A stretch of 64,000 nt of DNA from assembly GCA_937930175.1 (NCBI GenBank), contig CALGLP010000012.1, forward strand, positions 1,130 through 65,129. Reading direction: 5' to 3'. The stretch comes from an uncultured bacterium (lineage in GTDB: Bacteria; Omnitrophota; Gorgyraeia; Zapsychrales; Aceulaceae). The position numbers and the translations under genes were made by a program. Within the stretch, counting starts at the first letter, position 1. Each line of letters opens with the position of its first letter. The notes under the pieces are model-generated. The model was not told the DNA's origin. It was given only the letters and a program-made list of their open reading frames with translations, and did not search any database. Of the stretch, positions 5,917 to 64,000 are shown piece by piece.

Positions 5917-8900
5917 CTAACTTCCAACTTCTAATTTCTCTTCTTCTCCAAGCCCAAGCAACCCCATAAAATCTGTGACCGGAACAATGTTAATAATTAC
6001 TGGAATCAGACCTTTAATCTCTTGAAGATTCTCAAAACTCATATTTTGTGGCATCGCAAAATCGATTGCCTGACCTTGCGTTACAAGATTGATATTATCA
6101 GATTTAAAGTCGATGCCGCCGGGTCCGCTTGTAGCTTGCGAACCTTTTCCGCTCCCTGAGGGAGAGATCGTATCCGCAAGAGCGTTCCTTCTTTTTGTTG
6201 TCAAATATCGGCCAAAAAAATCTAACACCTGGTCAGAAATATCAGAAGGAAGCATTGTGTTTTTTATTACCTTGCCAACTTCTTTCGAAGCTTTCACCGC
6301 CATCTCTTCATCCCCCACAGTGCGAGAGTTGAATTTCCCATCCTCTGCAACCTTGGCCTGTCCATCGTCCTTCTTTTTAAACATATTCGATACGATCCCT
6401 TTGCCTTTCACAAACAACCCCCTGCCGCGATCCTTAAGACTTACGGTAAAATCTTGTTTTTCGATTTGATCCCATTTTCCCTCTGAAGCCAAACGCAAAG
6501 CAGTCATCTGTTCATTCGTTTTGTCAGGAAATTTATACCCCAACTTAGAAAATATTAATCCAGGAATCTCCATCTGGTCAACAGCCCGTATAATATAACC
6601 TACTTTCTTAAAGAATGTAGCCTCAAGAATTCTACCATCTGGGATTTGTGGCAACTGTCCAGGATGCAAAGCCATATAGCATAACCACTGCGCCAATTCA
6701 TGCATCCGCTTGCTTTTCCCAGCCAGGCCTTTTTCCCAAAGAGCCTTAAGTGTCAATGAAAATTCATCTGCTCCAAAATCCTCAGCTGACAACTCAGGAT
6801 TTAACACAAAATCATCCTGATCGATCGTTTCTTCTTCTAGAACAAACATCTTCTCATTGACCACGGCGTCCCGCCCCCCTGCAACAGACTCAAGGTCAGC
6901 ACGCGTCACCACCGCATCATTACGCCCCATGGAACCCAAGTCTAAAAAGACCAGCTCCAGCGAACCATCGTCACGTTTGTTGATCCAAATATTTCCGCCA
7001 TGCGGGTCCGCATGAAAGAACCCATCGACAAACATCTCTTCCATCAATTCGCCAAAGATCTTTTTCTTAAGCTGTCTGATCTCGTCCTTGGTCAACCCCA
7101 GCTCATCTTCAAGACGGCTATCTTCGTTTAACGGGACACCATGCATTTCTTCCTCAAAGATCGCCTGCCCGCGTAATGACTCAGGAAGCAGCTCATCGAG
7201 CTCCGTATAATTTTCTGCAGACCTCAAGAAAATCCGATGTGAACCGACAAAGAGCTCTTCAGTCCTGTTTGCCAAAATTTCCCTGTAACGCTTCTGATTG
7301 GCTCTTTCCACATAAAAATCGACCTCTTCCCTGAGATAAGAAGCCACCTGCTTTCCCATGTTTTTCGGGATATTCAAGCCCGACCGGCCAAGCGCATCCA
7401 AGATTTTCTCAAGAGTTTCTAGCTCCACATCAAGCACCTTGTCAATATGGGGCCGCTTAATCTTCATGACCACTCTTTTTCCGTCTGCCAGAACAACTCT
7501 ATAAACCAGCTTAATAGACGCACTGCCTAAACTGCTGCCCACATAAGCAAAATGTTTTCCAAAATCATCCCCTAACGCCAGACGCAAAAGCTGAAAAACA
7601 AACCGTTTGCCAAACGGATCTGCAGACGAAGATAGCTCCTGCAAAGCCTTCTTGACCAGAGAGTCAAGCCGGATGTCCGAATGACTGATGATCTGCGCCA
7701 GCTTGATGCCCACTAGGCCCATGGACTCAAAGAACGTCTTGATCAATTCAGGCACAGAGGATGTTCCATCGCTTTTCATCTTACCGGCCAAAGCACTGAT
7801 CACCTCAAGCGTCTTGTCCTCATCCAAATGTTGAAAAACAGTCCTGAAAATCTTCTTAAGACTTTTACGGTCGGCCATGCCTGCCGGCACACTTTTTTCA
7901 AACACAACATTTAGGAAGTGCGCCATACGCTCCGGATCACGCATGAGACCCTTCTTGCCGCCAAACAAAGATTCCATCAGGTCTTTTTTAGCGTTGGTGC
8001 CTATCGAGGAATACTTCGTCGAACCAAGCTCGGAGAAAATCTCTTTAAGATAACCCAAATCCGTGTGAGAAAAGAACTCGATCTCCATAACGGCAACGGG
8101 TTTTTCTTTTCTCAAGCCCATGATCCACAACGCAAACTCTTCCTTATCTAGGTTACTGGCTTTCTGAATGGTCTCGCGGATTTTGTTCTCAGCCGTGATC
8201 TTATTCTTAACCTTATCCTTAATCGCGTTTTCTTGTAAAAGCAACAAATGCTCTCGAACATCCTTATCTTCCTCTGGGATTCCCGCGCGCTCCATGATCT
8301 CCAGAAGAATATCATCCCGCGTAAAACTAAAGTCTGTAAAATATTGAAAAACTAGATCCATCTCCTGTTCAAAGGTCAACGACTGGCCCTCCTCCTTCTC
8401 CTTGATGCCCAGGGCAAGTTCCAGAGCTCGCAGACGAAACTTATCCCTGAAAAAATCCCGATACATAAGCGCCGAAAGCTGTTCCATCGCGCGTAATTTA
8501 TCGGATGCAGAAAGGCTAGCTTCCTGAAACGCCGATTCAGCCGCAGCGACCAAGAATTCATCCCGCACATAAGATGGCCGGGCAAAATATTCCTGCGTCT
8601 CACGCGCCAAGGCTTCCCAAGCCCTGCCTGCGCTCTGGGCTTTCTTCAAAATCATGTCCCGATATGGATATGCGGTCACAAGGTCGATCTGGGAATGAAT
8701 ATTCCCCTCCTCATTGAACTCGGCCTTGATACGTCCCCTGCTAAGACGGCCTGCCAGGGAGAGAAAAACAAAAAGCAAAGACCGGAAGGTCTGACTTAAA
8801 CGAAGAGGAGCGTATAATTCTTTCATTAATCTGAATTTCGTGCTGATGTCCATAAGCCGTTCCAACTCCTTGACCGGCAGGTCTGGCAAATGAAAAGGAC

Positions 8901-11900
8901 TTCCATACTTAGTTAAAGGAGACTCAGCAAACACGCTTCCTCCAAGTACCGATAGAAAAGGCAATATTTTCATAGCTCCCGGAATCTTTTCCAAATGCAG
9001 GATCGAATAGATTCTCAACCAGAATTTGTTCAGCAAATAAAATGAGCCGAACAAACAAGTAAAAAGAATCGGATCAAACATAACCTTAAATCTAGCCAAC
9101 CTGTTCCTTGCTTTATGACTTAGTCTCTTGGAAAAAGAGCTGAACAGAGTATACTCTTCAATCATCTCTTTTTCTTGGTGATTCACGGCCGCATTGCTAT
9201 CCGCGATCCATGCTGATATCAAGCCTGAAGTCACTCCGTTGATCTGCTTCATAAATCTGTCTTCTATCATCAAAGGCGCAATACTGCGCACAGCCGCCTG
9301 AAGCTCTTGATTATTGGCCAATTGTTTATTACTAAAACCACTCAAAACACGATCGAGATCATAAAATCGAGTCCACTTCTTCTGCCCCCGGATCCCCAGC
9401 GCAGAAGCAAGATGCTTGTCCCACAGAACATAATAAAGAAAAAGATCCCGAAAAGCAGATGACGGCATATAGTCTTTGGCAAAGGCTACCCAATGATCAA
9501 AGTCATACTGCGGGTTATCCTGGACAAAACTAAAGATCTTGAGCAGTCGTTTACGTTCAACGCTCGAAAAATGCAGGCGGTCCGTAGAATTTGTGCCTGA
9601 AATCAACCCCGCAAGAACAGCATGAACAGGAACGTTGCCCCTCCTTCTTAACAAGTCTTGAATCCACATTGTCCACAAAGTAAAATCAGGAACACGCGGA
9701 GGAGGGCGATAAAGCTTACTTGGAAATTCTCCGATTAATATCTGATAAGGATTATCCAGATCAGCTTGAACCGAAGAAACTGAAGAATTTTCTTCTGAAT
9801 AGAACCATGTGTTTTTATTCGAGTTTTTATTATGGGGGTGTTTGTATTTTTCCTGGGGATTTTGGGATCGGATCAGAAATGAAGCATTTTGACCCAGTGA
9901 TAGGTCAAAGTTAAATTTTTTATGGATCACATAATAACTTAACGGCACCAGATATTCCGACCATGTCATGGGGGTCAGAAAATACTTCTGAGCAAATCGC
10001 CGCTTTGTCTGAAGGGGCGTAAGAGCGTTAAGATAGGTAAACAAACCTTCAAGATCTTCAGCTGACAATCCAGAAATGGCATCGTCCAGCTGATCATAAA
10101 ATGTATCCATGGAAACAAACCCTCCCAGCCCAAAAAGATACATCCACTGCCTGATCTGCTGATTAAGATGGGAGACGCCTACAATAAAATCCTCACCCAG
10201 TCCCAGTTCCAGAGCCTGCGCCACAATAAACTTATTCGCATGCTCCATAATCTCCGCTGTTGCCGCTTCCTCCAGGATGCGTTCAGTATACTGAAAAAAT
10301 AAATTACTCAGAGTAGCAGGGTCATTATACGGATCCGTGATCGTAAACTCTTGTTGTCGTTCAGGCCTCTCATTCAATGCCTTGAACAGCGATTCGCTGT
10401 ACTTTAATTTCTCAACAGGTGTTGTAAAACCAAAATGCCCTTCAATGAACCCCAAGATATTCGGATCCTTTTGCAGAAGGACATAAAATTCAAAAAAGAC
10501 CTTTCCGGGATCATTGCCCCAGCGATCAAGAGAAAAATACTCGTTTTGGTCCAGCTTACCACGGGCAAAACCTGAAAGGATCGCCCCCGCGACAGACCGA
10601 CTAACAGCGCCTCTATCCTTTGAGAAAATAAGCATAATATCCTGACGATATCTTGCGTAATTGCTAGGATTAAAGATCAAGAGATCCAAGAAGAAATTCT
10701 GGCAGGACTGACTTTCAGATATCAATTCCGGAAAATTCTTGAACGTCTCAAGCAAAGTTTCCACCAGATCATCCGTAATCAGCTCAGTCTTTGCCTGCAA
10801 TCTGTCAATAATCTGCTCAACCGCAATCACGCCAATGCTATGATACATGACTACATATTTCTGCCAACCAACCTCCTTAGCCAAAAGGATCCTGTTCAAC
10901 AAATGGATGAGTTCCCTGACACTGAACTCATCAGCCCGGGCCTTAATGACGCCTTCGAGATCAAGTAAAAAATCGCTTGTCATCCAGCCTGCGCCCTTAC
11001 GCTGAACATCATGAGGAAATCTTTCGCGTTGCATCATAATGCCCTGACGTCTGCGACCTTCCTCGTCCTGGTGGATCAGGTCAAAGCGCCAGACAGATCC
11101 CAAGAGAGGATGATCAAAAACCCGGGCAAGATCTTCCTTAGGAAGCTTTTTGATTGAATCTATCAAAAACTTCTTCTCCGCCCCATGATCCAAGCCCTGC
11201 ACCTGCACAGGCATTGATTCCACTTCCCCGAAGAATGCGCGCATAGCGACCTTGCTGTAAAACGTTTGAATGCCATCTTCTGCCCGCGTCTCTTCTGCTT
11301 TGAGCGCCTCTAAGCGCTCTGCGGCCGCTTGGCCCAATTGTTTCAATTCTCGGTTCAATCCCATGTCTTGATATATCTGTTCAAAAACCTTTTTAATCTG
11401 AGGCGCAAAGGGTGCAATTTCTTTTTCAAGCTGAGGTAAAAGATCTTCTGTTAAAGGCTTTAATATGGTGCGAACCTCATCACTGCCTCTTTCTAAATAA
11501 GAACTGTTTGAAACAACGGGTTTGCTATAAGAAATTATGTTATCAACTTCGGTTAAACCCCAAGATATTCTATCCCTGACAATCGGGACAGGTCGCCAAT
11601 CCCTGTTATTAAGCAAATATTCAAGGAACCACATCAACAAACGATTATCCACATCAAATCGTTGATCTTGGTCTGCAGTCATATCCCTACTTTCTATAAT
11701 ACTCTGCCCTATCCTTAAGGAGTGATCCTTCTTGTACCCCATCGATAAAACAAAGCCATATTCCTGACTAGAAATACTCATGGGAAATAAGCCACGATTT
11801 AGTTTCTTAGACGCCATAGCATTTCTTAATCGCCACCAATTCCTTTTTTGAGGACGACCTCTTGAGTCTGGACGATCCAATCCCTGGCGCAATATTTCAG

Positions 11901-14900
11901 ACCGCGCAATCTCCATATAGCGGGTCAAGATCTGACGCAACTCTTCATGCAAACGGGTAAACTCTTTAAGCGCCGCGGAGTCCTTATTTAAATTCTGGTA
12001 TTCACTAACCTGAAATAACAATAGAGAATAAACCCCGTAGGTTGAGGCCATCTCTAGCTCTTTGGGAGTTTTGGCATCACGGATAAGCTCAAGGAGTTGG
12101 GCCGTGGTCCTGACGTTCATAAGCCGTGCGTGATACGTGCGCACCCGTGTACGTTCAAACTGATACGCCTGACCTTCCCAGCGCGTAAATTCCAAAGAAA
12201 AACCTTCAGAGAAAGGCTGGCTGGGCGCACGGTAATGCTTGAAATAATTGGGCTTTACAGCCTTAAGTATATTCCTGATCCTCTCTCCCAACAATGGATG
12301 ATTACCAAAAAAATTCTCCTTACGACCGTCCAGGTCCATGGCTTTTCTCAGCATTTCAAACGGCCTCTGGGCCTTCCCTACGGAATAACCCGCGCCGTCC
12401 ATGATCTCCAAGGCACGGCGATCGGCATCGATCTCATGAACGTAGACATCCACCTCTCCTTGAACATAACCCACGCTCCAATCATAACGGCCCCGCTCCA
12501 TCTTTCGTTTCATCTCGTCCAGCGTTTCGGGTTTGGGCGCTTCTCCCTTGTTGACTTTATCGCGGTCCTGAGTAATATGAGATATTTCATGCGCAAGGAT
12601 AAGCGCTATATGTTCTTTAAAAAACATAAAGAATTTCTCAGGATCCCCCTGACTGCGGCTTTCCTGGATAGCGTAAAAAAACTCCCACAGAAGCCCGATA
12701 TTAAGAACAATATGATTCGAGAAAGAAACGACAAAAGCATTGGCATCGGAATAATCTGCCAGATGAAAATGAAAGCTCCCCGGATCGTAGCCGGCACTCA
12801 CAAGAAGATTGTCGAATATTTCACGTAGTTCGCTGTAAACAGTCCTAAGCTCATCATCCCCATGACTGATGAGGCGGTATTCTTCTCTCGCATATTCAAT
12901 AAAAACATCCGCCGAATGCTGACTCACGTTATAACGCGCAGTCTCAGCGCGACGCTTCCATGTTTTAAGGGCGCTTTGGACATCTCCTTCGCCGCCCATG
13001 ACCTGAAAAACCGTATCCACCGGCGTTTCCCCGGATCTGTCCGCCGCATGAAGAAGGGTATCAAAAAACAGGGCCGCAAACAGCGAGGGGTCCATCCTGA
13101 CTGACAGAACATATTCGTTGATCCCGAAATATCCAGAACCACTTTCATAATTCATCATATACTTGGACGACCACTTGTCTTCTTCTCTCGGGACTACGCC
13201 GATCACAAGCCCGCCTTTGTCACCGGCCGCCTTGATCTGGCGGTGAAAAATCTCTTGATCTGCTGGAGAAAGCCGCTGATACCACTCTCCCAGAAGGGAC
13301 TGCCATTGATCCCGCGTCACACCACTATCGATCAAGTGGTGATCAATGGTGATGATTGTGCCGTCAAGCTCAAGCTGAACATTCCCCGTGCGACCAAGGG
13401 TCTCTCCCCGATAACGATCGACCTTTTTTGCTTCAAAATCCCTAGAATACCGCATGGCCTCAAATGTCGGCAGGCTTTGCCAGGACGTATTCTGCGCCTG
13501 ATCAGGTTCCCGCGCCTTCACGGGCGTGGAATTTCCTGTCTCAAGCGCTATTGGCGCTGATTGCTGTTCAAAGATTTCATTGCTGGAACTGGCTCTCGTC
13601 TCTATAGATTGATCAGTGACCGGAATATCCGACGACGCTACCCGCGGATTTTGGAAAAAGGGTGCCTCTGTTGATGTGCTTGTCCATTCTGGCGCTCTAG
13701 CTTGAACGGAGATTTCGTAGACTGTTTTCTGAGCTCCAGATTTTCTTATATAATTAATAAAAATATGACTTGGCTCTTGGCTTTCATGAAATGACGTATT
13801 TAGGTTCATGACCGTTACCCCTCCCGCAAAGTATTTCCGGGGGATGTTCTTTTTGGTGTAAGGATCATACTCCACCTTCATCATATTGCAGACGCCTTTT
13901 TTAAAGGTTTGGAGGTATTGTTGGTAAATGATTTGAACAGTATCTGGTGAAGAGTGAATAGTATCTAGAGAAGAATTATTCTGAGTTTGTGAAGGGTATC
14001 TGGTATCTAGTATCCGGTGCTTTTCTTCGCCATTTTCTAACGACTCTTCATTGCTTTTTTGGCTAGATACTAGATACTTTTCACTATTCACGACTTCTAG
14101 TCCTTTAACCTTTCTCTTATCCGCATACACCTTATTCAGTATTGAGTTCTTGAGATTCGTCTTATACCAGTAGCTTAAGATAATGCTGTTGTAGATCTGC
14201 CTTAGCTGGGCAAAGTTCTTGCCTTCATTGACTTCTTTTTCCAGGACAGGGATGAAGACCTCACGCACAATACTAGAAGAGATATCAGAAGATGGAGAAT
14301 GGACAATGGAAGATGGAAAAGTCTTAGAATCTAGGGAATCAGGACTTTTATTCGCTGTTGTCTTGTCGTTGTTTTTTCCATCTTCTATCTTCTCCCTTCT
14401 ATCTTCTTTACTTTTCTCTCTTGCTAAATAATCACTTTCCAGCATCACTTTTAATCGCGATTCAACGACAAAGGCCTTATCCTCTTGAACGTAGACTTCA
14501 GCCTTATCGGGCATGATCCAGACCTTGTTAAAGGTGTCGACAGGAACGTTCGTTGTCCCGAATTTCTCATAGGATTGCTTGTAAATCTTTTGCCAGAATT
14601 CTTTACCAAGATCACTATCAGGATTGGTTAAAGAGGCAGTTATTTGCTTTAAGAGATAGTCTTGGGCAAGCATATCAATACCCATCTCGGTAGTCCCAAG
14701 CTCTGCTGGAACGATGCGGTCTTTTTCATAGGGAGAAAGGTTGACCCAGAGATCATTCTCTGGAAGAGTAAGACTTGCCAGGAAGTAGCGGATAAGCTTT
14801 TCGCTTTCGCTCTTTAACTCATCCCCTTGAAGCCCGGAATCACCAGAATCGACAATAAAGTCGAACTTCAGGGGATTGTCAGGGTAGACACGTATTCCAC

Positions 14901-15081
14901 GAACCAGGGTAGGTGTGAAAGCCGGGCTTAAGGGGATGAGGGTATTACTAATAGCTGGTGCCAGGGTTTGAGACAAGGCTTCTTGAGGGGCGACACTCAT
15001 CAGCCCAAAAGAGAGTAAAAGACATAAAACAACCACCTTGTATAAAATAGAATTCTTATAAGTTCTTATATCATTTATCAT
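5917..15081 (-). CDS. Giant secreted multidomain protein A (3054 aa): signal peptide, family-specific N-domain, M48-type Zn-peptidase domain, UbiB/ABC1-type kinase domain, conserved C-terminal motif
   Basis: Single 9165-nt ORF. The N-terminus is hydrophobic (ILYKVVVLCLLLSFGLMSVA). The first roughly 420 aa are paralogous to the N-termini of the ORFs at 36386-42052 and 56961-62225 (shared FDFIVDSGD, YFLASLT, WVNLSPYEKDRI, VDTFNKVWIMP, LKVMLE, LEKEVNEGK, CNMMKVEYDPY). An M48 signature is present (ILAHEISHITQ ... EIDADRRALEIMDGAGY). UbiB kinase motifs are present (GIKLAQIISHSD..., VVMKIKRP, FHADPHGGNIW). The C-terminus GGIDF...IPVIINIVPVTDFMGLLGLGEEEKLEVGS is shared with the other giant ORFs. Confidence 0.8.
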   Translation of the reverse strand: MINDIRTYKNSILYKVVVLCLLLSFGLMSVAPQEALSQTLAPAISNTLIPLSPAFTPTLVRGIRVYPDNPLKFDFIVDSGDSGLQGDELKSESEKLIRYFLASLTLPENDLWVNLSPYEKDRIVPAELGTTEMGIDMLAQDYLLKQITASLTNPDSDLGKEFWQKIYKQSYEKFGTTNVPVDTFNKVWIMPDKAEVYVQEDKAFVVESRLKVMLESDYLAREKSKEDRREKIEDGKNNDKTTANKSPDSLDSKTFPSSIVHSPSSDISSSIVREVFIPVLEKEVNEGKNFAQLRQIYNSIILSYWYKTNLKNSILNKVYADKRKVKGLEVVNSEKYLVSSQKSNEESLENGEEKHRILDTRYPSQTQNNSSLDTIHSSPDTVQIIYQQYLQTFKKGVCNMMKVEYDPYTKKNIPRKYFAGGVTVMNLNTSFHESQEPSHIFINYIRKSGAQKTVYEISVQARAPEWTSTSTEAPFFQNPRVASSDIPVTDQSIETRASSSNEIFEQQSAPIALETGNSTPVKAREPDQAQNTSWQSLPTFEAMRYSRDFEAKKVDRYRGETLGRTGNVQLELDGTIITIDHHLIDSGVTRDQWQSLLGEWYQRLSPADQEIFHRQIKAAGDKGGLVIGVVPREEDKWSSKYMMNYESGSGYFGINEYVLSVRMDPSLFAALFFDTLLHAADRSGETPVDTVFQVMGGEGDVQSALKTWKRRAETARYNVSQHSADVFIEYAREEYRLISHGDDELRTVYSELREIFDNLLVSAGYDPGSFHFHLADYSDANAFVVSFSNHIVLNIGLLWEFFYAIQESRSQGDPEKFFMFFKEHIALILAHEISHITQDRDKVNKGEAPKPETLDEMKRKMERGRYDWSVGYVQGEVDVYVHEIDADRRALEIMDGAGYSVGKAQRPFEMLRKAMDLDGRKENFFGNHPLLGERIRNILKAVKPNYFKHYRAPSQPFSEGFSLEFTRWEGQAYQFERTRVRTYHARLMNVRTTAQLLELIRDAKTPKELEMASTYGVYSLLLFQVSEYQNLNKDSAALKEFTRLHEELRQILTRYMEIARSEILRQGLDRPDSRGRPQKRNWWRLRNAMASKKLNRGLFPMSISSQEYGFVLSMGYKKDHSLRIGQSIIESRDMTADQDQRFDVDNRLLMWFLEYLLNNRDWRPVPIVRDRISWGLTEVDNIISYSKPVVSNSSYLERGSDEVRTILKPLTEDLLPQLEKEIAPFAPQIKKVFEQIYQDMGLNRELKQLGQAAAERLEALKAEETRAEDGIQTFYSKVAMRAFFGEVESMPVQVQGLDHGAEKKFLIDSIKKLPKEDLARVFDHPLLGSVWRFDLIHQDEEGRRRQGIMMQRERFPHDVQRKGAGWMTSDFLLDLEGVIKARADEFSVRELIHLLNRILLAKEVGWQKYVVMYHSIGVIAVEQIIDRLQAKTELITDDLVETLLETFKNFPELISESQSCQNFFLDLLIFNPSNYARYRQDIMLIFSKDRGAVSRSVAGAILSGFARGKLDQNEYFSLDRWGNDPGKVFFEFYVLLQKDPNILGFIEGHFGFTTPVEKLKYSESLFKALNERPERQQEFTITDPYNDPATLSNLFFQYTERILEEAATAEIMEHANKFIVAQALELGLGEDFIVGVSHLNQQIRQWMYLFGLGGFVSMDTFYDQLDDAISGLSAEDLEGLFTYLNALTPLQTKRRFAQKYFLTPMTWSEYLVPLSYYVIHKKFNFDLSLGQNASFLIRSQNPQEKYKHPHNKNSNKNTWFYSEENSSVSSVQADLDNPYQILIGEFPSKLYRPPPRVPDFTLWTMWIQDLLRRRGNVPVHAVLAGLISGTNSTDRLHFSSVERKRLLKIFSFVQDNPQYDFDHWVAFAKDYMPSSAFRDLFLYYVLWDKHLASALGIRGQKKWTRFYDLDRVLSGFSNKQLANNQELQAAVRSIAPLMIEDRFMKQINGVTSGLISAWIADSNAAVNHQEKEMIEEYTLFSSFSKRLSHKARNRLARFKVMFDPILFTCLFGSFYLLNKFWLRIYSILHLEKIPGAMKILPFLSVLGGSVFAESPLTKYGSPFHLPDLPVKELERLMDISTKFRLMKELYAPLRLSQTFRSLLFVFLSLAGRLSRGRIKAEFNEEGNIHSQIDLVTAYPYRDMILKKAQSAGRAWEALARETQEYFARPSYVRDEFLVAAAESAFQEASLSASDKLRAMEQLSALMYRDFFRDKFRLRALELALGIKEKEEGQSLTFEQEMDLVFQYFTDFSFTRDDILLEIMERAGIPEEDKDVREHLLLLQENAIKDKVKNKITAENKIRETIQKASNLDKEEFALWIMGLRKEKPVAVMEIEFFSHTDLGYLKEIFSELGSTKYSSIGTNAKKDLMESLFGGKKGLMRDPERMAHFLNVVFEKSVPAGMADRKSLKKIFRTVFQHLDEDKTLEVISALAGKMKSDGTSSVPELIKTFFESMGLVGIKLAQIISHSDIRLDSLVKKALQELSSSADPFGKRFVFQLLRLALGDDFGKHFAYVGSSLGSASIKLVYRVVLADGKRVVMKIKRPHIDKVLDVELETLEKILDALGRSGLNIPKNMGKQVASYLREEVDFYVERANQKRYREILANRTEELFVGSHRIFLRSAENYTELDELLPESLRGQAIFEEEMHGVPLNEDSRLEDELGLTKDEIRQLKKKIFGELMEEMFVDGFFHADPHGGNIWINKRDDGSLELVFLDLGSMGRNDAVVTRADLESVAGGRDAVVNEKMFVLEEETIDQDDFVLNPELSAEDFGADEFSLTLKALWEKGLAGKSKRMHELAQWLCYMALHPGQLPQIPDGRILEATFFKKVGYIIRAVDQMEIPGLIFSKLGYKFPDKTNEQMTALRLASEGKWDQIEKQDFTVSLKDRGRGLFVKGKGIVSNMFKKKDDGQAKVAEDGKFNSRTVGDEEMAVKASKEVGKVIKNTMLPSDISDQVLDFFGRYLTTKRRNALADTISPSGSGKGSQATSGPGGIDFKSDNINLVTQGQAIDFAMPQNMSFENLQEIKGLIPVIINIVPVTDFMGLLGLGEEEKLEVGS
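13949..14093. repeat. In-frame palindromic insertion (hairpin-forming) within giant gene A, insertion 2
   Basis: The arms gtgaatagtatctag ... ctagatacttttcactattcac form an imperfect inverted repeat. The segment encodes a low-complexity stretch (NSEESLENGEEKH...SSLDTIHSSPD) that is absent from paralog B at the equivalent position. Confidence 0.45.
14273..14425. repeat. In-frame palindromic insertion within giant gene A, insertion 1 (tagaag-type)
   Basis: The arms agaagatggagaatggacaatggaagatggaaaag ... cttttttccatcttctatcttctcccttctatcttc form an inverted repeat. It encodes EDRREKIEDGKNN...SSIVHSPSSDISSS between the conserved LKVMLESDYLA and IVREVFIP blocks, and paralog B has only a short linker there. 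Confidence 0.5.
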
Positions 15082-15352: not shown

Positions 15353-15757
15353 TTAAATGCGGGCTAGTAAAAGATCCTTCATATGATTAACGAGCATCTT
15401 AGGGTCAACGGGCTTTGTAATAAAATCATCCCAACCCATATTATATTTTTCCATCAAGGAATCCCGATAAGCCGTAATCATGATCACAAGGCTATCTTGC
15501 TTAAGATCCTTGGCCTTTTCTTCGTAGGAACGAATGGCTTTTAAGACCTGAAAGCCATCCAGTTCAGGCATGGTGACATCAAGCAAAACAAAATCAAATG
15601 GGGTTTTTGTTTGAATAGCTTTTTGATGCAGATCAAGGGCTTCGCGACCGGTTTTGGCAATGGAACACTGGGCAAGATTCTTAAGGCCATCCGAGAGAAT
15701 CGCTCGATTCTCTGCATCATCTTCAGCAACAAGAACTTTCCACATAATACCCTCCAA
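15353..15757 (-). CDS. Response regulator receiver domain protein (single-domain, CheY-like)
   Basis: 134 aa with VLVAEDDAENRAIL...LDVTMPELDGFQVLKAIR, showing the REC domain acidic pocket and the phospho-acceptor Asp context. Confidence 0.7.
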   Translation of the reverse strand: MEGIMWKVLVAEDDAENRAILSDGLKNLAQCSIAKTGREALDLHQKAIQTKTPFDFVLLDVTMPELDGFQVLKAIRSYEEKAKDLKQDSLVIMITAYRDSLMEKYNMGWDDFITKPVDPKMLVNHMKDLLLARI

Positions 15758-15825
15758 GCCCTTGTACTTACGTTAGCTTTATTATAAACCTATCGCGCCA
15801 AAATAAGGAATATTTTTTGTAAAAA

Positions 15826-19065: not shown

Positions 19066-19073
19066 AAAACTAT

Positions 19074-22501: not shown

Positions 22502-22505
22502 AAGC

Positions 22506-23396: not shown

Positions 23397-23418
23397 ACAA
23401 CACGCTTAAGCAAAAAAA

Positions 23419-51517: not shown

Positions 51518-51535
51518 CTCTTCTCCTTAAACATT

Positions 51536-54998: not shown

Positions 54999-55001
54999 AA
55001 A

Positions 55002-56180: not shown

Positions 56181-56198
56181 AAATTTTAAATTCTTTAA

Positions 56199-56346: not shown

Positions 56347-56348
56347 TT

Positions 56349-56960: not shown

Positions 56961-59900
56961 TTACAACTTGCTCAGCTCCAGACCTTCTGCCTCCTCTTCG
57001 AATACACCTAAAAGAAGGGGCAGGTTCGTCACCGGTGCGACATTGATGATGACAGGATAGAGTCCGTCGACCTGAAGATCCTCAAAATCTTGATTGTTGA
57101 GATCAAATGGGATCGCACTACTCCCCTCTCCCTTGCGCTCAATATTTAGATTCGCCAGATTAAAATCCACACCGCCCTTGATCTTAACTGAAGAAAGTGC
57201 CTCATCTGTGATGGTGCCTTGCTCTAGCCCTGTGGTGACACCCTTAAGATTTTCTTCTAAATCACTATATGAGGTGAACCCCAAAGCATTCGCCATCATT
57301 ACCTTCTTGAATCCTGATAGCTCTTCGCCAGTAAGCTCAAGATAATTCAGAATGACATCCCAAACCGCTTTTTTTGATTTCACCGTCAAATATTTAAGAG
57401 GAATATCCTGCGAAAATGTTACCTCGCCAGGAGATTCATCCTTGCGAAAGCCCGCCTCTTCAAGTTCTTTCTTAGCAAAAATAAGATTAATGCCGCCAAA
57501 ACTGTTGAGAAGGCGCACCCGCGCCATCTGTCCCTGACCCCCAGAGTTAACAAAAATCTTGTCTTTTGACCCTAAAAGCTTTCCTTGGCTTTCAAAAATG
57601 ATCTTATATAAAGCTTCCGACGTTGTAACATGGCCCCAAGCCTCTTCAATACCCGAATAATTCTCAGCCATCCATCCATTAACATCAAAAAACGTCCTAT
57701 AATTTCTTTGTGCAATCTTCTTAAGCGCTACATCTTTTTCTATACCTGGCTGAAGCCTGTCCATTTTATCAATAGCTAATTCTACGGATAACGACTTCTC
57801 AGAAGGAATGTGGGAAGCATTAGCAACAATCCAAGCTCTTGCCGAAACGATGAATTTAAGGGCCTCTTCTGCGCCCATTTGCTTAACAAGACTATTTTCA
57901 ATTTCATATCGAATATCATCCCAAGTAGCATTTGCAAATACATCATCCACTCCCTCCACCCCAAAATCTTTTTTAACTGCCTCGGGTAGGTCGCCTTCTG
58001 CCAGCTCCTCTTTTTCCTTTCCAGCGCTTGCGCCATCATAGCGCAAATATTTCACAGCCCCTGATTTATCAAGAAGCATGACATAAAGTTTTTTCTCAAA
58101 AACTGTAAAATTTACTACGCCGACAAGAAGATAGGGTTTTCGTCCATCAGATAAGGACAGCGTCCCTGGAGCGTCTTCGCGGCCAGCAGGAAAGATCTGA
58201 ATCCCAGGTAAAATAGCGGGATTTGAATCGATATACTCCATTTTTTCTTCGATGGAAAGATACTCTGCCCTGGTAATATTCGCGCGAGGAGCATTAGTAA
58301 AGATTTGCAGAATCCGTGCGTTGATCTGATACCACTCCATCGGCACAAGAGGCGAATTGGCTTTGGCCGCGCCAGATGATGGCAAAGGCTTCTTGGTATC
58401 AACAGGCTTAGAGGGACTTTCCTTCTTTATTTCCCCGCCATATCCAAGCATATGTATGGCATAATAGGCTTCTGGAAAAACATAGTTCATGGCTTCAAAC
58501 CCTACGGGAGGCACAAATTTATTATTTCGCTGAAATTGTGGCCAATGGGTATCAACAATATACGGCATGCCAGCGCCACCCACGTCCACGTAAACCTTCA
58601 AAACTGCATGGGGCACAGCTTGTTTATTGCCGGAATCTTGAAAATCAAAGGGAACGGAAAAATCTTTCTTCTCAAGATCCCAATTGCCGCGGTTTCCGCC
58701 GAGGATATCAAAAAGATCATTGCGAGCAATCTGGCAATTCCTGTCCAAATCATTGCGATGTTTTCTGGCAAGGCCCATAGCCATATCACGCAAAACCGGC
58801 AAGGTCAAGGTAGAACTGACGACCTTCTGCTTCAGTAGTTCATTCTTAAAATTTAAAGTATAAAAAAGAAAATCACGCTTGGCCTCCTGCTTCTCACGAA
58901 TGAGCGGCATGCCATTCTTGAATCCGCCTGAGAACTCAACGGGATAGGCCCCCAGAAACTCAACGGCGCGAATCATGTTCATGTCATCTGTCTCTACCGG
59001 TAAAGCGCTCAACCCTTGAGAAAGCTTACTGTAAAACATAAAACCTTCAACCTTGTTCAAAATATTTTCTTTTTTAAATCCTGCCTTCTCCATTTGCTGG
59101 AGAATAAGAGCCTTCATGAATAAAACATACGAACCTGTCTCAGTCGTGTCGATAAAGCGGATCCCTTTATCTTCGATTTCCTGCCAAGAAATATTAAGCG
59201 TCTCAAAATATTTTGAGAATCCTTCTGCTGCCTTCTGAATACCTGCTTGGTGCTCATTAATCAATTTCGTACGCGGTGATTCGAGGATGCGGCCTTCCGT
59301 GAATGCATTAAAGATAGCAAAGAATTCTTCCTCAAACTTCGCAAATCTATCCTCGGGAACACGGTCCCTCTCCTTCAGATCCATCCGCAGTTTTGCCTCA
59401 GTAATCAGGTAATGAATCGCGCTGGGAAGGGTGTTGGTTTTTTGTCCTCCGGCAAGACTCTCAAAAACCTTGTTGGAGGCAAAAAAACCTTTTTTCTCTT
59501 TTTCCCCTGCCAAATACAGCAAAGCCTCATCTCGAAAGAAATAAATATTATACGCATCGGTGTTTGCAGATTTTCTCTGAATAAAGCGGGTAAAGTTAGA
59601 AGCCGTCTTTGCGGTGTCCCTTATAGTTTCCAAATCATGCCACGCTGGAATCTTCGAAATCCCCATGGCATCCGCAATTTCTTTCATTTCAGCGTCGGTT
59701 ACTGGCCTGTCAATGGTGGCAGAAATGGCATCAACCCATGCGACAAAATCAGAAAACTGATCTCCGATAGGATCTTGATAAAGCTTTCTTATTTTTTCAA
59801 CAAGCGTCGAGGCGGAGGAATTGGTTGTGCCAGGCTGGTCTGCGGGCGCAGCTTGCGCTTGTTCTTCTTCGATGAATTCCTTCACATTCTCTAAAACGAC

Positions 59901-62225
59901 AGTGCGCATCATTTCATAAGTTGGAGCGCTTTGGCCATTTTTCGCTCTTAAGTCCTTATACTGATCAAATGTCAGTCCATACTGACGCATAAAAGAACCT
60001 TCATATCCCTCAAACTCTGAAATCTTGTCGAAACCTTCAGCAAGTCCATCGGCAATATCACTCTTGATGCGATCCATTATGCTTTTGAGAGGTTCAATAT
60101 CTTGCGAACCAAATTCTTTCCCCACCTTTCTATAAAAAATATCATAAATCGACTGCAAAGATTGCCTTAGCTCAAGATTGCTTTCGCTTGCGATATAATC
60201 TCGCAATTCGTCACCGTTTAAGACAAATTGCCTAAAAAATTCCGCTAAAAACTGGTTTGGCCCATACTCTCTAAGATAGGTATTGCGAATAAGGCTTTTT
60301 GTGCTGAAATCCAAGATATTTTCTTCATCACTTGGAAGCAACACGCGATACTCCTTGACGGCCTTGATCTTGTTGTAAAATTCAACAGCGCTTGCGCGAT
60401 CCTCAGAAGAAAAATGGCTCTCAATGCTATGACCAATTTCATGCAAAATCAAACGTGCCAATCCAAACAAATCCCAATACGCAATGCCCAGAGAATCAAT
60501 CGTTACCATTTTCTCTTCGATGTCATAATTCCCAACATCTGGCCGAGCCATTCGAGGAACAGGCATGCCGAACAAAAACTTAGTAATAATTTGCCGGCCT
60601 CTTTCTCCCTCCTTCAAATCTTTCTTATCGCCATAGTCTAAAACCTCTCCAGGGACCAGGGACAACAAGAAAGCAATAAAATTTCTTAAATCTGTCTTGC
60701 CTGCAGGAAACACTTTATAGAAAAACTCAATATTGTGCTCTCTGAACACATCGGGTATTTCTTGATTTACTGCTTTGCTTGGACTACCTTCAGGTGGTTC
60801 TTTGCCTTTAGAATCTTGAAACTTAAATTTAACGTTTTTAAAAACAGCTTTAATTTTTCTTACAAATGCTCCATCTCTTATTCGCTGGATAGCTACCTTG
60901 ATATTGCTCGAGTTAAAACCCCCTGAAAAATACTTACGCGGGATGGCCTTTTTGGCATAGGGGTCATACTCGACCTTCATCATGTTGCAGACACCTTTTT
61001 TGTACGCAGCGAGGTATTGCTGGTAAATAAAATTGACATCAGAAATTAGAGGTTGGAGGTTAGAAGCTAGAAAAAGAACTGAAGATTGAGAATCGATGTT
61101 GGAAGTTAGATTTTTTTCGTTGTTTTTTCTATCTTCTCCCTTCTCCCTTCTATCTTCTATCCTCAATCCTTCCACCTTTCTCTTATCGCTATACACTTTA
61201 TTCAAAATAGAATCCTTGAGCGTTTCCTTAAACCACGTAGCCAAAATCAGCGAATGATAGATCTGGCGCAAATTCGCGAAATTCTTGCCCTCATTGACTT
61301 CCTTTTCCAGGGCCGGGATAAAGACTTCACGAACGATACTAGAAGAGATATCAGAAGTTAGAGGTTGGAGATTAGAAGTTAGAAGAGGCGAAGAAGAATC
61401 TTTTGTGTTGTTTGGATTTGCCTCTTCTCCCTTCTCCCCTCTATCTTCTAACTTCTTTTCTGAATTCTTCTGCTCTGCTAAATAATCACTTTCCAGCATG
61501 ACTTTCAATCGTGATTCCACAATAAACGCCTTGTCGCCATTTTCATAAACAACCGCCTTTTGCGGCATGATCCACACCTTATTAAAGGTATCCACCGGAA
61601 CATTGGTTGTGCCGTATTGTTCAAAGGCTTTTTTGTAAACCTTGGCCCAGAATTCTTTGCCCAAATCAGAATCGGGGTTGATCAAGGATGCGGTGATCTG
61701 CTTTAAAAGATAATCTTGCGCCAACAGATCGCGGCCCATCTCCGTCTGGCCAAAGCCTTCGGGCACGATGCGGTCTTTTTCATAGGGCGAGAGATTGACC
61801 CATAGGTCGTCTTCGGGCATGGTCAAGGACGCGAGAAAATATTTCACAAGCCTTTCTGTTTCTTTGTTAAACGCTTCGCCCTCGAGCTTCGCGTCACCCA
61901 CATCAACAATAAAATCAAATTCAAAAGGATTCGCGGCATTGGTCCTGATCCCGCGCAAGATCGTCGGAACAAAGCCTAGGCTCAACGCCACAGCTGTACC
62001 TGGCGCTGGCAGCCCTAAGGAACTTTGGGCATAGCTTAGGGATGGCAAAAGGGTTTGGGTGAGAAAAATGAGGCAGACAGAAATGGAAATAATCTTTTTG
62101 GAATGAGTAGAAAGTAGAGAGTAGAAAGTAGAGAGTAGAAAACGAAAAGAACGACAAAAAAGAAGGCAAAATTCCTTTTGCGATCTTTGCGTCAGTTGTT
62201 TTATAATATCTTTTTCTCTGTTCAT
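56961..62225 (-). CDS. Giant secreted protein C (1754 aa) with family N-domain, HEIGH zincin-like domain and C-terminal motif
   Basis: Conserved N-domain blocks are present (FEFDFIVDVGD, YFLASLTMPEDDLWVNLSPYEKDRI, VDTFNKVWIMPQKA, LKVMLESDYLA, LEKEVNEGKNF, CNMMKVEYDPY). A HExxH motif sits in LARLILHEIGHSIESH. The C-terminus is GGVDFNLANLN...YPVIINVAPVTNLPLLLGVFEEE. The first 45 codons lie inside an intergenic-looking palindrome, so the exact start is uncertain. Confidence 0.7.
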   Translation of the reverse strand: MNREKDIIKQLTQRSQKEFCLLFCRSFRFLLSTFYSLLSTHSKKIISISVCLIFLTQTLLPSLSYAQSSLGLPAPGTAVALSLGFVPTILRGIRTNAANPFEFDFIVDVGDAKLEGEAFNKETERLVKYFLASLTMPEDDLWVNLSPYEKDRIVPEGFGQTEMGRDLLAQDYLLKQITASLINPDSDLGKEFWAKVYKKAFEQYGTTNVPVDTFNKVWIMPQKAVVYENGDKAFIVESRLKVMLESDYLAEQKNSEKKLEDRGEKGEEANPNNTKDSSSPLLTSNLQPLTSDISSSIVREVFIPALEKEVNEGKNFANLRQIYHSLILATWFKETLKDSILNKVYSDKRKVEGLRIEDRREKGEDRKNNEKNLTSNIDSQSSVLFLASNLQPLISDVNFIYQQYLAAYKKGVCNMMKVEYDPYAKKAIPRKYFSGGFNSSNIKVAIQRIRDGAFVRKIKAVFKNVKFKFQDSKGKEPPEGSPSKAVNQEIPDVFREHNIEFFYKVFPAGKTDLRNFIAFLLSLVPGEVLDYGDKKDLKEGERGRQIITKFLFGMPVPRMARPDVGNYDIEEKMVTIDSLGIAYWDLFGLARLILHEIGHSIESHFSSEDRASAVEFYNKIKAVKEYRVLLPSDEENILDFSTKSLIRNTYLREYGPNQFLAEFFRQFVLNGDELRDYIASESNLELRQSLQSIYDIFYRKVGKEFGSQDIEPLKSIMDRIKSDIADGLAEGFDKISEFEGYEGSFMRQYGLTFDQYKDLRAKNGQSAPTYEMMRTVVLENVKEFIEEEQAQAAPADQPGTTNSSASTLVEKIRKLYQDPIGDQFSDFVAWVDAISATIDRPVTDAEMKEIADAMGISKIPAWHDLETIRDTAKTASNFTRFIQRKSANTDAYNIYFFRDEALLYLAGEKEKKGFFASNKVFESLAGGQKTNTLPSAIHYLITEAKLRMDLKERDRVPEDRFAKFEEEFFAIFNAFTEGRILESPRTKLINEHQAGIQKAAEGFSKYFETLNISWQEIEDKGIRFIDTTETGSYVLFMKALILQQMEKAGFKKENILNKVEGFMFYSKLSQGLSALPVETDDMNMIRAVEFLGAYPVEFSGGFKNGMPLIREKQEAKRDFLFYTLNFKNELLKQKVVSSTLTLPVLRDMAMGLARKHRNDLDRNCQIARNDLFDILGGNRGNWDLEKKDFSVPFDFQDSGNKQAVPHAVLKVYVDVGGAGMPYIVDTHWPQFQRNNKFVPPVGFEAMNYVFPEAYYAIHMLGYGGEIKKESPSKPVDTKKPLPSSGAAKANSPLVPMEWYQINARILQIFTNAPRANITRAEYLSIEEKMEYIDSNPAILPGIQIFPAGREDAPGTLSLSDGRKPYLLVGVVNFTVFEKKLYVMLLDKSGAVKYLRYDGASAGKEKEELAEGDLPEAVKKDFGVEGVDDVFANATWDDIRYEIENSLVKQMGAEEALKFIVSARAWIVANASHIPSEKSLSVELAIDKMDRLQPGIEKDVALKKIAQRNYRTFFDVNGWMAENYSGIEEAWGHVTTSEALYKIIFESQGKLLGSKDKIFVNSGGQGQMARVRLLNSFGGINLIFAKKELEEAGFRKDESPGEVTFSQDIPLKYLTVKSKKAVWDVILNYLELTGEELSGFKKVMMANALGFTSYSDLEENLKGVTTGLEQGTITDEALSSVKIKGGVDFNLANLNIERKGEGSSAIPFDLNNQDFEDLQVDGLYPVIINVAPVTNLPLLLGVFEEEAEGLELSKL
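61041..61180. repeat. In-frame palindromic 'tagaag/ggagg' insertion within giant gene C (insertion 2)
   Basis: agaaattagaggttggaggttagaagctag ... ttctatcttctcccttctcccttctatcttctatcc. It encodes EDRREKGEDRKNNEKNLTSNIDSQSS...ASNLQPLISD between the conserved KRKVEGL and IYQQYL blocks, and is absent in paralog B. Confidence 0.5.
61338..61462. repeat. In-frame palindromic 'tagaag' insertion within giant gene C (insertion 1)
   Basis: agaagttagaggttggagattagaagttagaagaggcgaagaag ... cctcttctcccttctcccctctatcttctaacttct. It encodes EDRGEKGEEANPNN...LLTSNLQPLTSDISSS, the same site as A insertion 1. Confidence 0.5.
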
Positions 62226-62290: not shown

Positions 62291-62292
62291 TT

Positions 62293-64000
62293 CTAACTTC
62301 CAACTTCTAACTTCTCTTTTTCTCCAAGCCCCAGCAGCCCCATAAAGTCGGTCACAGGCGTTACATTAATGATGATCGGCACGAGGCCTTCAAAATGGTC
62401 AGAAAAAATAGGGCTAGAGGAATTAAGGATGAAAAGATTTGGGTGATCAGATTGTGTCATGTTTAACGTGTTAGGTGTTAGGTTGTTTTGGCCTTCCGTG
62501 ACACTTGACTCTTGAAACTTTTCACTATCCTTTATCCCTTGACCCCTTTGCCCCTCTACTCCTTTTACTTTTACATTCATATTCTTAGCGTTAAAATCGA
62601 TTCCTCCTTTGGTGCCACTTGTATTCGCTGACGATGTAAGAAGCTTATCAATATGAATAATAAATTCCGTAAGAACTAAGCCATTATCGGTTCTTGTTTT
62701 TTGAATAGCGCACGGAGCCTTATCCATCAAGGTCGTCACACTCTCAGGGATCTGATCGCCACCCGTATCCGGGGACAATACCGTAGACTTTAAAAAAACG
62801 ATTTTCTTCCCATCAGCAGAAAGGGATCCCTCCCGAAGATCGATCTTGTAACGAACAGGCCCTGCAACACCCCCAGCCTGCTCGTAAAGATCCTGAATGG
62901 CCCCAGCCAACAAGACAGCATCTTTTTCCTCAAAATGCTTGCCATCTAAAAGAGCCGGCATCTCCTGCGCAACAAGACCATTCACAGATCTTATGGATAA
63001 ACTGCTAAATAACGTATTGGTCAGATTATTTTCTTCAACTACATTCATTACCTCTGGACTTAGATTACTATCGATAACTTTTTTATCAAGATTAGTCCTC
63101 ACCTCAATTAACCCAAAAATAGAGCTTAGTGGGTCCTCGCGAACGGAGAATTTAATCGCATCCTCCATTGCCTGCGGAAGCATCGCATGAATAAAAACAC
63201 CAGTTTGATTGATGCCTAAGGTCTTAGCGTCAAAATCCTCCTGATCGCCTTCTGAGCTCAGAGGAGATTTTAAATTAACAGTACGAACAATACCATCCTT
63301 TGCGACAGATATAAAGATCGCAGGAAAAGCCGTATCACCTAAAACAGCAGTACCCCTGCCTTCTTTACCCATATTGTCGGAATTAAGCGTGTCGTCTTTC
63401 TGCACTTTTCCTTTTCGGTATGACCCATCAGAAAAAATATCCTTTAAGTTTGTAACAATTTCGCCTTGTTCATCAAAAACACCCGGACCATAATCAAAAG
63501 CAAAAATCTCTATTCCCCCTGGCACCTCTTTTAAAAGCACAAGGCCTTGGCCTCTTGCATGTTGAATCATGTTTTCCGTGATACCATCAACAACCGCTCT
63601 CTGGTCTGGGGACATGCTTATTAGAGCATCGTCATCTAATATAATTTCACGATTTTCAACAACAACAAGCATAAATCCGCTGTCACGCGCAAATTGCTTG
63701 GCGCTCTCAAATGATTCTGGCCCCTTTTTCCACAAATCAGCCATTTGCTGGACAACGGACGACGAAACAGGAGTCTTTTCTTGTTCACGTACAACATTGT
63801 TCGACGAAACCTTCTGCCTCCTCCACTTCCCGCCATCTTCACTTCGCTCAAAAACCATTTCCTGTTTGCTAGGGGCACCAAGGCCCTCCACGTCATCATA
63901 AAATTGGAAACGGATCTCCTCAATTCGCCCATTTCTCACTTTTCGCGTGAGTCGAACAGACTGAAACCCTTTTGTAGGCATAAGCTTTGTCCCTGTCCAG
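62293..64000 (-). CDS. Giant-protein family member D, 3' portion (reading frame stays open to the window edge; N-terminus not in window)
   Basis: The C-terminus GGIDFNAKNMNV...LVPIIINVTPVTDFMGLLGLGEKEKLEVGS is nearly identical to protein A's. The last roughly 60 nt are about 85-90% identical to the 3' end of gene A. There is no stop upstream of the listed Met, so the gene probably extends beyond 64000. Confidence 0.7.
   Translation of the reverse strand, partial: WTGTKLMPTKGFQSVRLTRKVRNGRIEEIRFQFYDDVEGLGAPSKQEMVFERSEDGGKWRRQKVSSNNVVREQEKTPVSSSVVQQMADLWKKGPESFESAKQFARDSGFMLVVVENREIILDDDALISMSPDQRAVVDGITENMIQHARGQGLVLLKEVPGGIEIFAFDYGPGVFDEQGEIVTNLKDIFSDGSYRKGKVQKDDTLNSDNMGKEGRGTAVLGDTAFPAIFISVAKDGIVRTVNLKSPLSSEGDQEDFDAKTLGINQTGVFIHAMLPQAMEDAIKFSVREDPLSSIFGLIEVRTNLDKKVIDSNLSPEVMNVVEENNLTNTLFSSLSIRSVNGLVAQEMPALLDGKHFEEKDAVLLAGAIQDLYEQAGGVAGPVRYKIDLREGSLSADGKKIVFLKSTVLSPDTGGDQIPESVTTLMDKAPCAIQKTRTDNGLVLTEFIIHIDKLLTSSANTSGTKGGIDFNAKNMNVKVKGVEGQRGQGIKDSEKFQESSVTEGQNNLTPNTLNMTQSDHPNLFILNSSSPIFSDHFEGLVPIIINVTPVTDFMGLLGLGEKEKLEVGS

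Follow-up and report, generated by a model that had tools for sequence, protein, structure and literature searches.

The 64,000 nt window analysed here, by which we mean the whole stretch of DNA, comes from a metagenome-assembled genome (MAG) of Omnitrophota with a GC content of ca. 43%, and contains four genes, designated A, B, C, and D, whose products belong to a single large protein family. Omnitrophota are ubiquitous, uncultured, ultra-small bacteria that are thought to live on other cells. Members of the family have a fixed layout, consisting of a Sec-type signal peptide (…AxA|Q), a conserved N-terminal module (N-module), a hypervariable middle region, or cargo, of 0.3–3 kAA (thousand amino acids), and a conserved C-terminal module (C-module) near the stop codon. 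Both modules are apparently undescribed, and the family comprises thousands of proteins and is confined to Omnitrophota, so that it is not a local oddity. We consider it somewhat probable (ca. 0.55) that these proteins are Sec-exported carriers, whose invariant ends would be sorting or anchoring signals around exchangeable cargo.

The four paralogs are alike only at their ends

Nearly all the genes of the window are on the minus strand, as are A–D and all their features given below. A sequence-only reading of this DNA had proposed that four minus-strand open reading frames (ORFs), covering about 35% of the window, form one family, in which the ends are invariant and the middles unrelated. The four ORFs were confirmed at their positions and together occupy ca. 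21.8 kb, or 34% of the window. In pairwise BLAST comparisons, the N-modules of the paralogs showed 42–54% amino acid (aa) and ca. 70% nucleotide identity and the C-modules 40–48% identity, and there was no similarity between the middle regions of A–D. Hidden Markov models (HMMs) built from homologs recognized the N-modules of the window with 579–599 bits and the C-modules with 51–73 bits. Additionally, A, B, and C each contain a single copy of the motifs LSPYEKD, FNKVWI, and EKEVN, which are absent from the rest of the window in all six frames, and the motifs GG[IV]D[FL] and P[VI]I[IL][NE]xxP[VI][TN] are found once in each of A, B, C, and D. Of the conserved N-terminal blocks attributed to three of the proteins, several are altered in B (FDFIVNDGD, and no CNMMKVEYDPY); all four proteins carry the proposed C-terminal motif, but the conserved region is not of ca. 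35 aa, measuring ca. 55 aa in A, B, and C and ca. 93 aa in D, and its sequence in B is divergent.

Gene A (5917–15081) encodes 3054 aa. Its predicted Sec signal peptide (14971–15081, aa 1–37, …QEALS|QT) contains a hydrophobic 19-mer at aa 12–30 and is followed by the N-module (13819–14970, aa 38–421; 579 bits), which has two low-complexity loop inserts and ends in KYFAGG. The cargo includes an M48-like metallopeptidase segment (12568–12831, aa 751–838; PF01435), with HEISH at aa 831, and an ABC1/UbiB atypical kinase domain (6916–7635, aa 2483–2722; PF03109). The C-module (5953–6120, aa 2988–3043) reads GGIDF…PVIINIVPVT…GLLG and precedes an acidic tail of 11 aa.

Gene B (36386–41920; 1844 aa) probably starts at the Met at 41920 and not at the TTG listed at 42052, because this Met stands directly ahead of the signal peptide. 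The N-module (40871–41821, aa 34–350) is followed by ca. 1400 aa of cargo and by the divergent C-module (36434–36598), which reads GGVDL…PIILEMTPIN…LQLG and scores 56 bits.

Gene C (56961–62225; 1754 aa) has a long N-terminal extension and a signal peptide with predicted cleavage at about A66|Q, followed by the N-module (60918–62027, aa 67–436; 592 bits), a cargo with a HEIGH motif, and the C-module (57006–57176; GGVDF…PVIINVAPVT…LLLG; 72 bits). The first 66 aa (62028–62225) comprise an extension of ca. 44 aa, with a second hydrophobic stretch, ahead of the segment resembling a signal peptide; a homolog of C (P0375) has a similar but longer extension.

Gene D (62293–64000+) is cut by the end of the window, which contains its C-terminal 568 aa, including a C-module (62329–62607) in which an insert of ca. 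50 aa separates GGIDF from the PIIINVTPVT block. With the extension provided by NCBI contig DAIMJH010000048.1 (L084), the full protein has at least 1461 aa, and its N-module is beyond the end of the window. The extended sequence starts inside the N-module (QLRQIYNSIILSYWYK…VCNMMKVEYDPY), which is nearly identical to that of A in this part (E 3e-40), and D is therefore a fourth full member of the family.

Genes A and D show further local similarities. Their last 22 codons (66 nt) are 88% identical in nucleotide sequence, and a low-complexity insert of ca. 124 nt (…EDRREKIEDGK.NDKT…SPDSLDSKT.PSSI.HSPSS) is 89.5% identical between them, the surrounding N-module being ca. 70% identical. This insert occupies different loops of the N-module in the two genes, loop 1 in A (14272–14421) and loop 2 in D (L084:117–240), and C holds weaker copies of it. 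The pattern points either to an insert that moves in frame or to local gene conversion.

The possibility that these ORFs are assembly chimeras was rejected. The ribosomal protein S2 of the window and protein C are identical on contigs of ENA, Logan, and NCBI assemblies, the longest of them of 68 kb, and the layout recurs in hundreds of independent MAGs; A also has a colinear ortholog (see below). The exact products of A and B are absent from the contig index, probably as a result of other start calls or variants.

A large family with a fixed architecture

The N-module of A retrieved at least 1378 proteins (clustered at 90%), with the top matches 44–74% identical and no Pfam match on the N-module of any of these top homologs. 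Those with a name came from Omnitrophica/Omnitrophota or metagenome records, plus one evidently misbinned archaeal label. In the GTDB genomes (one per GTDB species), patterns derived from the N-module occurred in at least 598 places, 587 of them confirmed, with several in one MAG. The census of C-terminal motif proteins proposed in the sequence-only reading was done with a C-module profile, which, among 1.84 billion representatives of 50% identity clusters, retrieved 6427 clusters at E ≤ 1e-3 (4179 of them at E ≤ 1e-10), in every case with the match at the very C-terminus. Nearly all the listed matches of sufficient length for a complete protein also bear the N-module.

A search with full-length C gave 3989 matches at E ≤ 1e-10 among the 8000 candidates scored. 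Both modules were present in 117 of the 120 best full-length homologs (966–3027 aa), in which the C-module ends a median of 7 aa before the C-terminus; a hydrophobic segment was found at the N-terminus in 108 of these 120 proteins, and 104 had no internal transmembrane-like segment. Likewise, the C-module closes 66 of the 78 complete ORFs with an N-module from GTDB loci (median 1596 aa, range 759–3535), and at least five of the other 12 directly precede a separate ORF with a C-module, as if a frameshift had split the gene. Arrays of two or three members in tandem are common in these loci, and two MAGs contained at least six paralogs each among the top matches alone. Except for a few records with generic or evidently wrong labels, all named sources of the family are Omnitrophota; NCBI annotates its members as "hypothetical" or after a cargo domain.

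Eight ORFs with an N-module (L009, L010, L013, L020, L021, L034, L039, and L042) were still open after more than 3678 aa at the end of the locus. The family therefore reaches sizes beyond those measured, and may grade into giant proteins.

We rejected the existence of small stand-alone C-module proteins, as the short matches were fragments at contig ends or frameshifted gene pieces on a noisy long-read contig. In this contig (L005; ENA ERZ1286166 contig_3134), many genes, including a family member, are broken into short ORFs, which looks like frameshift noise; such splits lead to false "stand-alone" C-module mini-proteins in protein databases.

Signal peptide and N-module

An alignment of 105 N-termini yielded the consensus KK…, a hydrophobic run of 14–20 aa, and PSxAYA|Q, with a positively charged n-region (median net charge +3). 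By these sequence rules, the family N-terminus conforms to a textbook signal for signal peptidase I (Sec-type, AxA|Q), in agreement with the Sec-type signal peptide proposed in the sequence-only reading. An invariant LPxPG opens the N-module ca. 5 residues past the predicted cleavage site.

The N-module extends for ca. 320–380 aa directly after the signal peptide. Modelling of the N-module of B with AlphaFold2 (AF2) confidently predicted a mixed alpha/beta fold (predicted local distance difference test score, pLDDT, 81.7; predicted template modelling score 0.77). The invariant residues of the module are mainly Pro, Gly or aromatic residues, and none of them is a His, Ser or Cys, which argues for a binding or structural role, not a catalytic one. 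No transmembrane-like or obviously membrane-inserting segment was found in it.

The suggestion that the modules lie outside described families was borne out. The N-module had no match in Pfam-A or NCBIfam at E ≤ 10, sequence searches of PDB with A, B, and C retrieved only relatives of the UbiB domain, for A, and the N-module model has no fold relative in PDB; its Foldseek matches to the pore-forming toxins NheA and MakA/B were insignificant (E 0.5–2, template modelling score ca. 0.1). Additionally, neither module is described in the literature on giant proteins of Omnitrophota (West-Roberts 2023, 10.1101/2023.11.21.568195; Nielsen & Lui 2026, 10.64898/2026.06.07.730766), which was covered outside subscription journals.

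The C-module

Family-wide, the C-module is of ca. 55–110 aa. It has GGID[LF] and a short strand-like block, which a variable loop connects to [GF]xPVIINxxP…L..[LF]LG, and ends in a short tail that is acidic or polar; LQIKRDGNGxPLP and LQTQNxGxxIKFHxDP characterize two common subtypes. The core is moderately hydrophobic (Kyte-Doolittle hydropathy, KD, 1.7–1.8) and contains two prolines. There was no family match at E ≤ 10 for the four C-modules in NCBIfam or for the three compared with Pfam. In the AF2 model of a short family member (P0068, 564 aa; 77 alignment rows, ca. 30 with both modules) the C-module has a pLDDT of ca. 50–70 and almost no secondary structure. From its strong conservation, together with this low confidence, we infer that the C-module could be an extended peptide that folds on a partner.

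The invariant GG could recall a double-glycine (C39) leader, but this candidate was rejected against the generally known leader consensus, because conservation is downstream and not upstream of GG. The divergences of the N- and C-modules correlate (Spearman 0.33; none of 200 Mantel permutations reached this value); although significant, this correlation is explained by shared ancestry, and we dropped it as a sign of physical coupling.

A motif consisting of a hydrophobic residue followed by S-S-[S/P] (ASSS, SSSP[VIL]) has a ca. 9-fold higher density in the 40 residues ahead of GGID than in other parts, with 29 of 116 proteins having it in this region; SSP[VILMAF] was found 84 times, vs. 14 expected by shuffling. 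Examples from the window are at aa 497 of A (RASSSNE), aa 1254 and 1344 of B, and aa 78 of D. At the boundaries of modules, the motif may serve as a linker or as a site of glycosylation or processing.

Cargo

Pfam scans of 49 middle regions and the precomputed Pfam domains of the 120 full-length homologs showed that the cargo is mostly unannotated, and that its annotated part is dominated by housekeeping-type cytoplasmic enzymes, not by classical toxins. The domains found include class I methyltransferases, GNAT, M48, NUDIX, RmlD, DeoC, acyl-CoA dehydrogenase, and Glu/Ala dehydrogenases; kinase and signalling domains (ABC1/UbiB, Ser/Thr kinase with PP2C, HATPase_c, and response-regulator receiver); enzymes of carbon metabolism (PGM/PMM, PGI, PGK, enolase, PPDK/PEP-utilising enzymes, and isocitrate lyase with malate synthase) as well as of glycogen and sugars (GH77, starch synthase, and UDPGP); and HEAT, ankyrin, and NHL repeats. 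One member contains a full-length PGK (E 3e-107), in which the hallmark motifs of this enzyme are retained. In a MAG of Candidatus Aceula lacicola (L011:9845–14560), the enolase cargo is circularly permuted inside a single family protein with both modules, with the Enolase_C TIM barrel (aa 946–1260) ahead of Enolase_N (aa 1279–1373).

As to the window, the M48 and UbiB domains proposed for A differ in strength: the UbiB/ABC1 domain is solid (PF03109, E 2e-28; TIGR01982; ABC1/COQ8 chains in PDB), whereas the M48 domain is weak, though above the Pfam cutoff (PF01435, E 1.8e-6; 28.3 bits vs. 20.3). A protein of 2969 aa (P0454) is a distant colinear ortholog of A, with the same order of N-module, M48, UbiB, and C-module; therefore, cargo can be old and be kept within the frame of the two modules. 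There was no Pfam or NCBIfam match in the cargo of B, C or the part of D in the window, and no match to PDB sequences for B and C. This agrees with the description of ca. 1400 aa without recognisable domain in B; in C, the HEIGH motif on which a zincin had been proposed is present but has no support from Pfam or PDB.

Genomic neighbourhood and other genes of the window

We clustered, all against all, 1120 ORFs from the 10-kb flanks of 78 loci. No secretion, outer-membrane, immunity or chaperone gene recurs in these flanks, and no dedicated secretion or outer-membrane gene is thus linked to the family in the 78 loci. Its genes are therefore scattered, as those for substrates of a general pathway would be. 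Response regulators or histidine kinases appear within 10 kb in 17 of the 78 loci, sometimes directly adjacent, and the other recurrent neighbours are housekeeping genes (ABCF, GuaA, trp genes, SerRS, and glycosyltransferases). In the window, a stand-alone response-regulator receiver gene (15356–15772, minus strand) is immediately upstream of A, and there is another at 51134–51526. Such genes being common, these two-component neighbours may be there by chance.

The rest of the window codes for ordinary genes of an anaerobic diderm, including ribosomal protein S2, EF-Ts, LpxB, an MsbA-like ABC exporter, pyruvate:ferredoxin oxidoreductase (PFOR), anaerobic ribonucleotide reductase, rubrerythrin, ferritin, and AsmA. 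Between A and B there is a full "aerotolerance-type" operon (BatA-BatD/MoxR AAA+/DUF58/VWA/TPR-SH3; 16476–24417, minus strand). A 1099-aa ORF (24488–27787, minus strand), without Pfam match, is a clear homolog of GH161 beta-1,3-glucan/oligosaccharide phosphorylases (PDB 9h8v and 9qqk, E ca. 1e-226), and adjoins a polysaccharide deacetylase gene (27793–28623).

Proposed function and alternative explanations

In the explanation that we favour, Sec would thread the polypeptide across the inner membrane and the signal peptide would be removed at AxA|Q, as read from sequence features. Conserved components of the cell envelope of Omnitrophota would then recognize both invariant ends as handling signals, the N-module acting as a globular adaptor or anchor without catalytic function, and the C-module as an extended docking or sorting peptide, in the role of the C-terminal domain of type IX cargo. 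The variable middle would end up outside of the cytoplasm, either periplasmic, exposed on the surface, or where the cell meets a host or prey cell, and new members would arise by swapping the middle while retaining the ends. We favour handling signals and an extracytoplasmic cargo because the ends are far more conserved than the middle, the N-module lacks catalytic hallmarks, the C-module appears docking-like, and the genes are scattered.

Several observations weigh against this explanation. Export, processing, and location are predictions from sequence, and the signal peptide was called by sequence rules and not with SignalP or DeepTMHMM. The AF2 model of P0068 gave neither a confident fold of the C-module nor readable information on contacts between both modules, and a minority of apparently complete proteins on long contigs (e.g., P0095 and P0054) have the N-module alone. 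The cargo enzymes need ATP, S-adenosylmethionine (SAM), NAD or acetyl-CoA, which are unexpected in the periplasm or on the surface, so that the final destination is a real difficulty for this explanation, and no secretion, outer-membrane, immunity or chaperone gene recurs near the family in the 78 loci.

The need for cofactors speaks in favour of a compartment in which ATP and SAM are present, namely the cytoplasm of a host or prey. This leads to an alternative that we consider unlikely, in which the family would be self-delivering effectors akin to the multifunctional autoprocessing repeats-in-toxin (MARTX) proteins, with both modules translocating the cargo into the host or prey cytoplasm, where it would redirect carbon metabolism for the benefit of the epibiont. 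The conserved ends around a swapped centre are as in MARTX, and PGK, PPDK, kinases, methyltransferases, GNAT, and dehydrogenases would all find their cofactors there; ankyrin and HEAT repeats are a typical feature of effectors that target hosts, and the core of the C-module is moderately hydrophobic. Additionally, a predatory or episymbiotic lifestyle has been inferred for Omnitrophota, and RNA of the predator was reported to occur within prey cells (PMC10066038, PMC13153191). However, the family has a Sec signal, which MARTX lack, and has no RTX repeats, cysteine-protease autoprocessing domain or signal for type I secretion. Neither does the N-module contain a transmembrane-like or obvious membrane-inserting segment, its matches to NheA and MakA/B being insignificant, and the 78 loci show no link of the family to an immunity or chaperone gene.

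The lack of a membrane-inserting feature and of linked machinery, together with the surface coat of a cultured relative, described as a "coated coccus" (PMC10066038), keep alive the retention of these proteins in the periplasm or on the surface. They could be scaffolds in which the N- and C-modules form one structural unit or bind head to tail, tethering or polymerising enzymes in an enlarged periplasm or a coat, which we deem improbable and, if anything, a less likely alternative than delivery into another cell. Most members have a signal peptide and no other membrane segment, the two modules are nearly always inherited together with correlated divergences, and there are no linked genes for outer-membrane translocation in the 78 loci, all as expected from such scaffolds. 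Conversely, the correlation is expected from common descent alone, the C-module was not placed confidently in the model of P0068, complete proteins exist with only the N-module, and the problem of cofactors for ATP- or SAM-dependent cargo is at its worst for a scaffold. Finally, that the modules are ordinary known domains, such as a divergent adhesin anchor or sorting signal, or that the genes are assembly or gene-fusion chimeras is very improbable, given the lack of Pfam and NCBIfam matches even at E = 10, the identity of C in independent assemblies, the layout repeated in hundreds of MAGs, and the colinear ortholog of A.

Sec-exported carriers with handling signals at both ends, our preferred explanation, admit a broader and quite tentative extension, which we would bet against as it stands: the N- and C-modules might constitute a bipartite address label of an unrecognised sorting or delivery pathway of Omnitrophota, through which these host-dependent bacteria would export whole metabolic enzymes (of glycolysis and of glycogen and PEP metabolism, as well as kinases and methyltransferases) to the surface or into host or prey cells, with the giant proteins of the phylum as its extreme end. 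The family appears to be a mid-size (0.8–3.7+ kAA) counterpart of these signal-peptide-bearing "multi-enzyme" giants. A precedent for the export of metabolic enzymes is found in Chlamydia trachomatis, which exports enzymes of glycogen metabolism and phosphoglucomutase out of the cell (PMC4829429, PMC9251005); NCBI places the phylum of Chlamydia together with Omnitrophota in the Planctomycetes-Verrucomicrobia-Chlamydiae (PVC) group.

The multi-enzyme giants of Omnitrophota with signal peptides are an open puzzle, for which the family offers thousands of tractable examples of 1–3 kAA. The two conserved, unannotated modules are handles that allow a sequence-only census of exported cargo in any Omnitrophota genome, phylogenetic profiling or pull-downs to find the machinery that recognizes them, and testing whether apparently intact cytoplasm-type enzymes, such as PGK, work outside the cytoplasm. 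Should the ends prove to be sorting signals, the family would be a new class of secretion substrates in the PVC group. Recognition of the modules would also improve annotation, now based on the cargo domain or limited to "hypothetical."

Comparison with known systems

By its layout, the family is near the cargo proteins of the type IX secretion system (T9SS), TpsA proteins, and MARTX, and fails the defining features of each. The likeness to T9SS cargo of Bacteroidota includes a Sec signal, found here by sequence rules, an enzymatic or adhesive cargo that is highly diverse and in many cases very large, a conserved module at the extreme C-terminus, and scattered genes with many paralogs per genome. 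However, the C-module has no match of the Por_Secre_tail/TIGR04183 type (E ≤ 10), is shorter, and is not predicted to be an Ig-like sandwich, and there is an extra conserved N-module of ca. 350 aa. To our knowledge, T9SS is not known in Omnitrophota.

As in the TpsA proteins of two-partner secretion, a signal peptide is followed by a conserved N-terminal domain (of ca. 300 aa in TpsA) and by a long variable protein. Nevertheless, the N-module was predicted by AF2 as mixed alpha/beta and not as a beta-helix, it has no Haemagg_act match, no adjacent TpsB or recurrent outer-membrane transporter was found among the flanking ORFs of the 78 loci, and there is also a C-module.

The MARTX-like logic invoked in the sequence-only reading holds phylum-wide as regards conserved N- and C-terminal regions around a swappable enzymatic centre in proteins of several kAA. 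It does not extend to the defining features of MARTX, which have glycine-rich repeat ends, a type I secretion signal, and no Sec signal, and release their effectors through a cysteine protease domain (CPD); in contrast, A–D had no RTX or CPD match in Pfam or NCBIfam, the signal is Sec-type, and the cargo is of a housekeeping type instead of toxins. The proposed likeness to polymorphic effectors did not stand: polymorphic toxins have a conserved N-terminal region for trafficking, a variable C-terminal toxin tip, and an immunity gene immediately downstream, whereas here the variable part lies in the centre, conservation is highest at the C-terminus, and no small downstream gene recurs in the 78 loci.

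Sortase and exosortase signals (such as LPXTG, PEP-CTERM, and GlyGly-CTERM) combine a motif with a transmembrane helix and a basic tail, unlike the two-proline core and acidic or polar tail of the C-module, which did not match them in NCBIfam at E ≤ 10. Similarly, autotransporters (type V secretion) end in a beta-barrel of ca. 250–300 aa, whereas the conserved end is here of ca. 55–110 aa and has no Autotransporter Pfam match.

The family shares with the "multi-enzyme metabolic" class of Omnitrophota giants a frequent signal peptide and tiled domains of cytoplasm-type enzymes, such as methyltransferases, HATPase, GNAT, PGM/PMM, and starch synthase, as well as receiver domains and HEAT repeats. 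This repertoire and the signal peptides were reported for Omnitrophota proteins of at least 10 kAA, 94% of which bear a signal peptide or transmembrane helices (Nielsen & Lui 2026, 10.64898/2026.06.07.730766). These giants mostly have many transmembrane helices; conversely, the members of our family are mostly devoid of internal transmembrane-like segments, and A–D are of 1.46+ to 3.05 kAA. The glycogen enzymes and phosphoglucomutase of C. trachomatis are likewise sugar-metabolism enzymes of a PVC bacterium that act outside its own cytoplasm, but they are type III secretion substrates of ordinary size and without conserved flanking modules. Together, these comparisons indicate that conserved sorting or anchoring modules around a variable cargo are of an already known kind, and that what is new here are the two apparently undescribed modules themselves.

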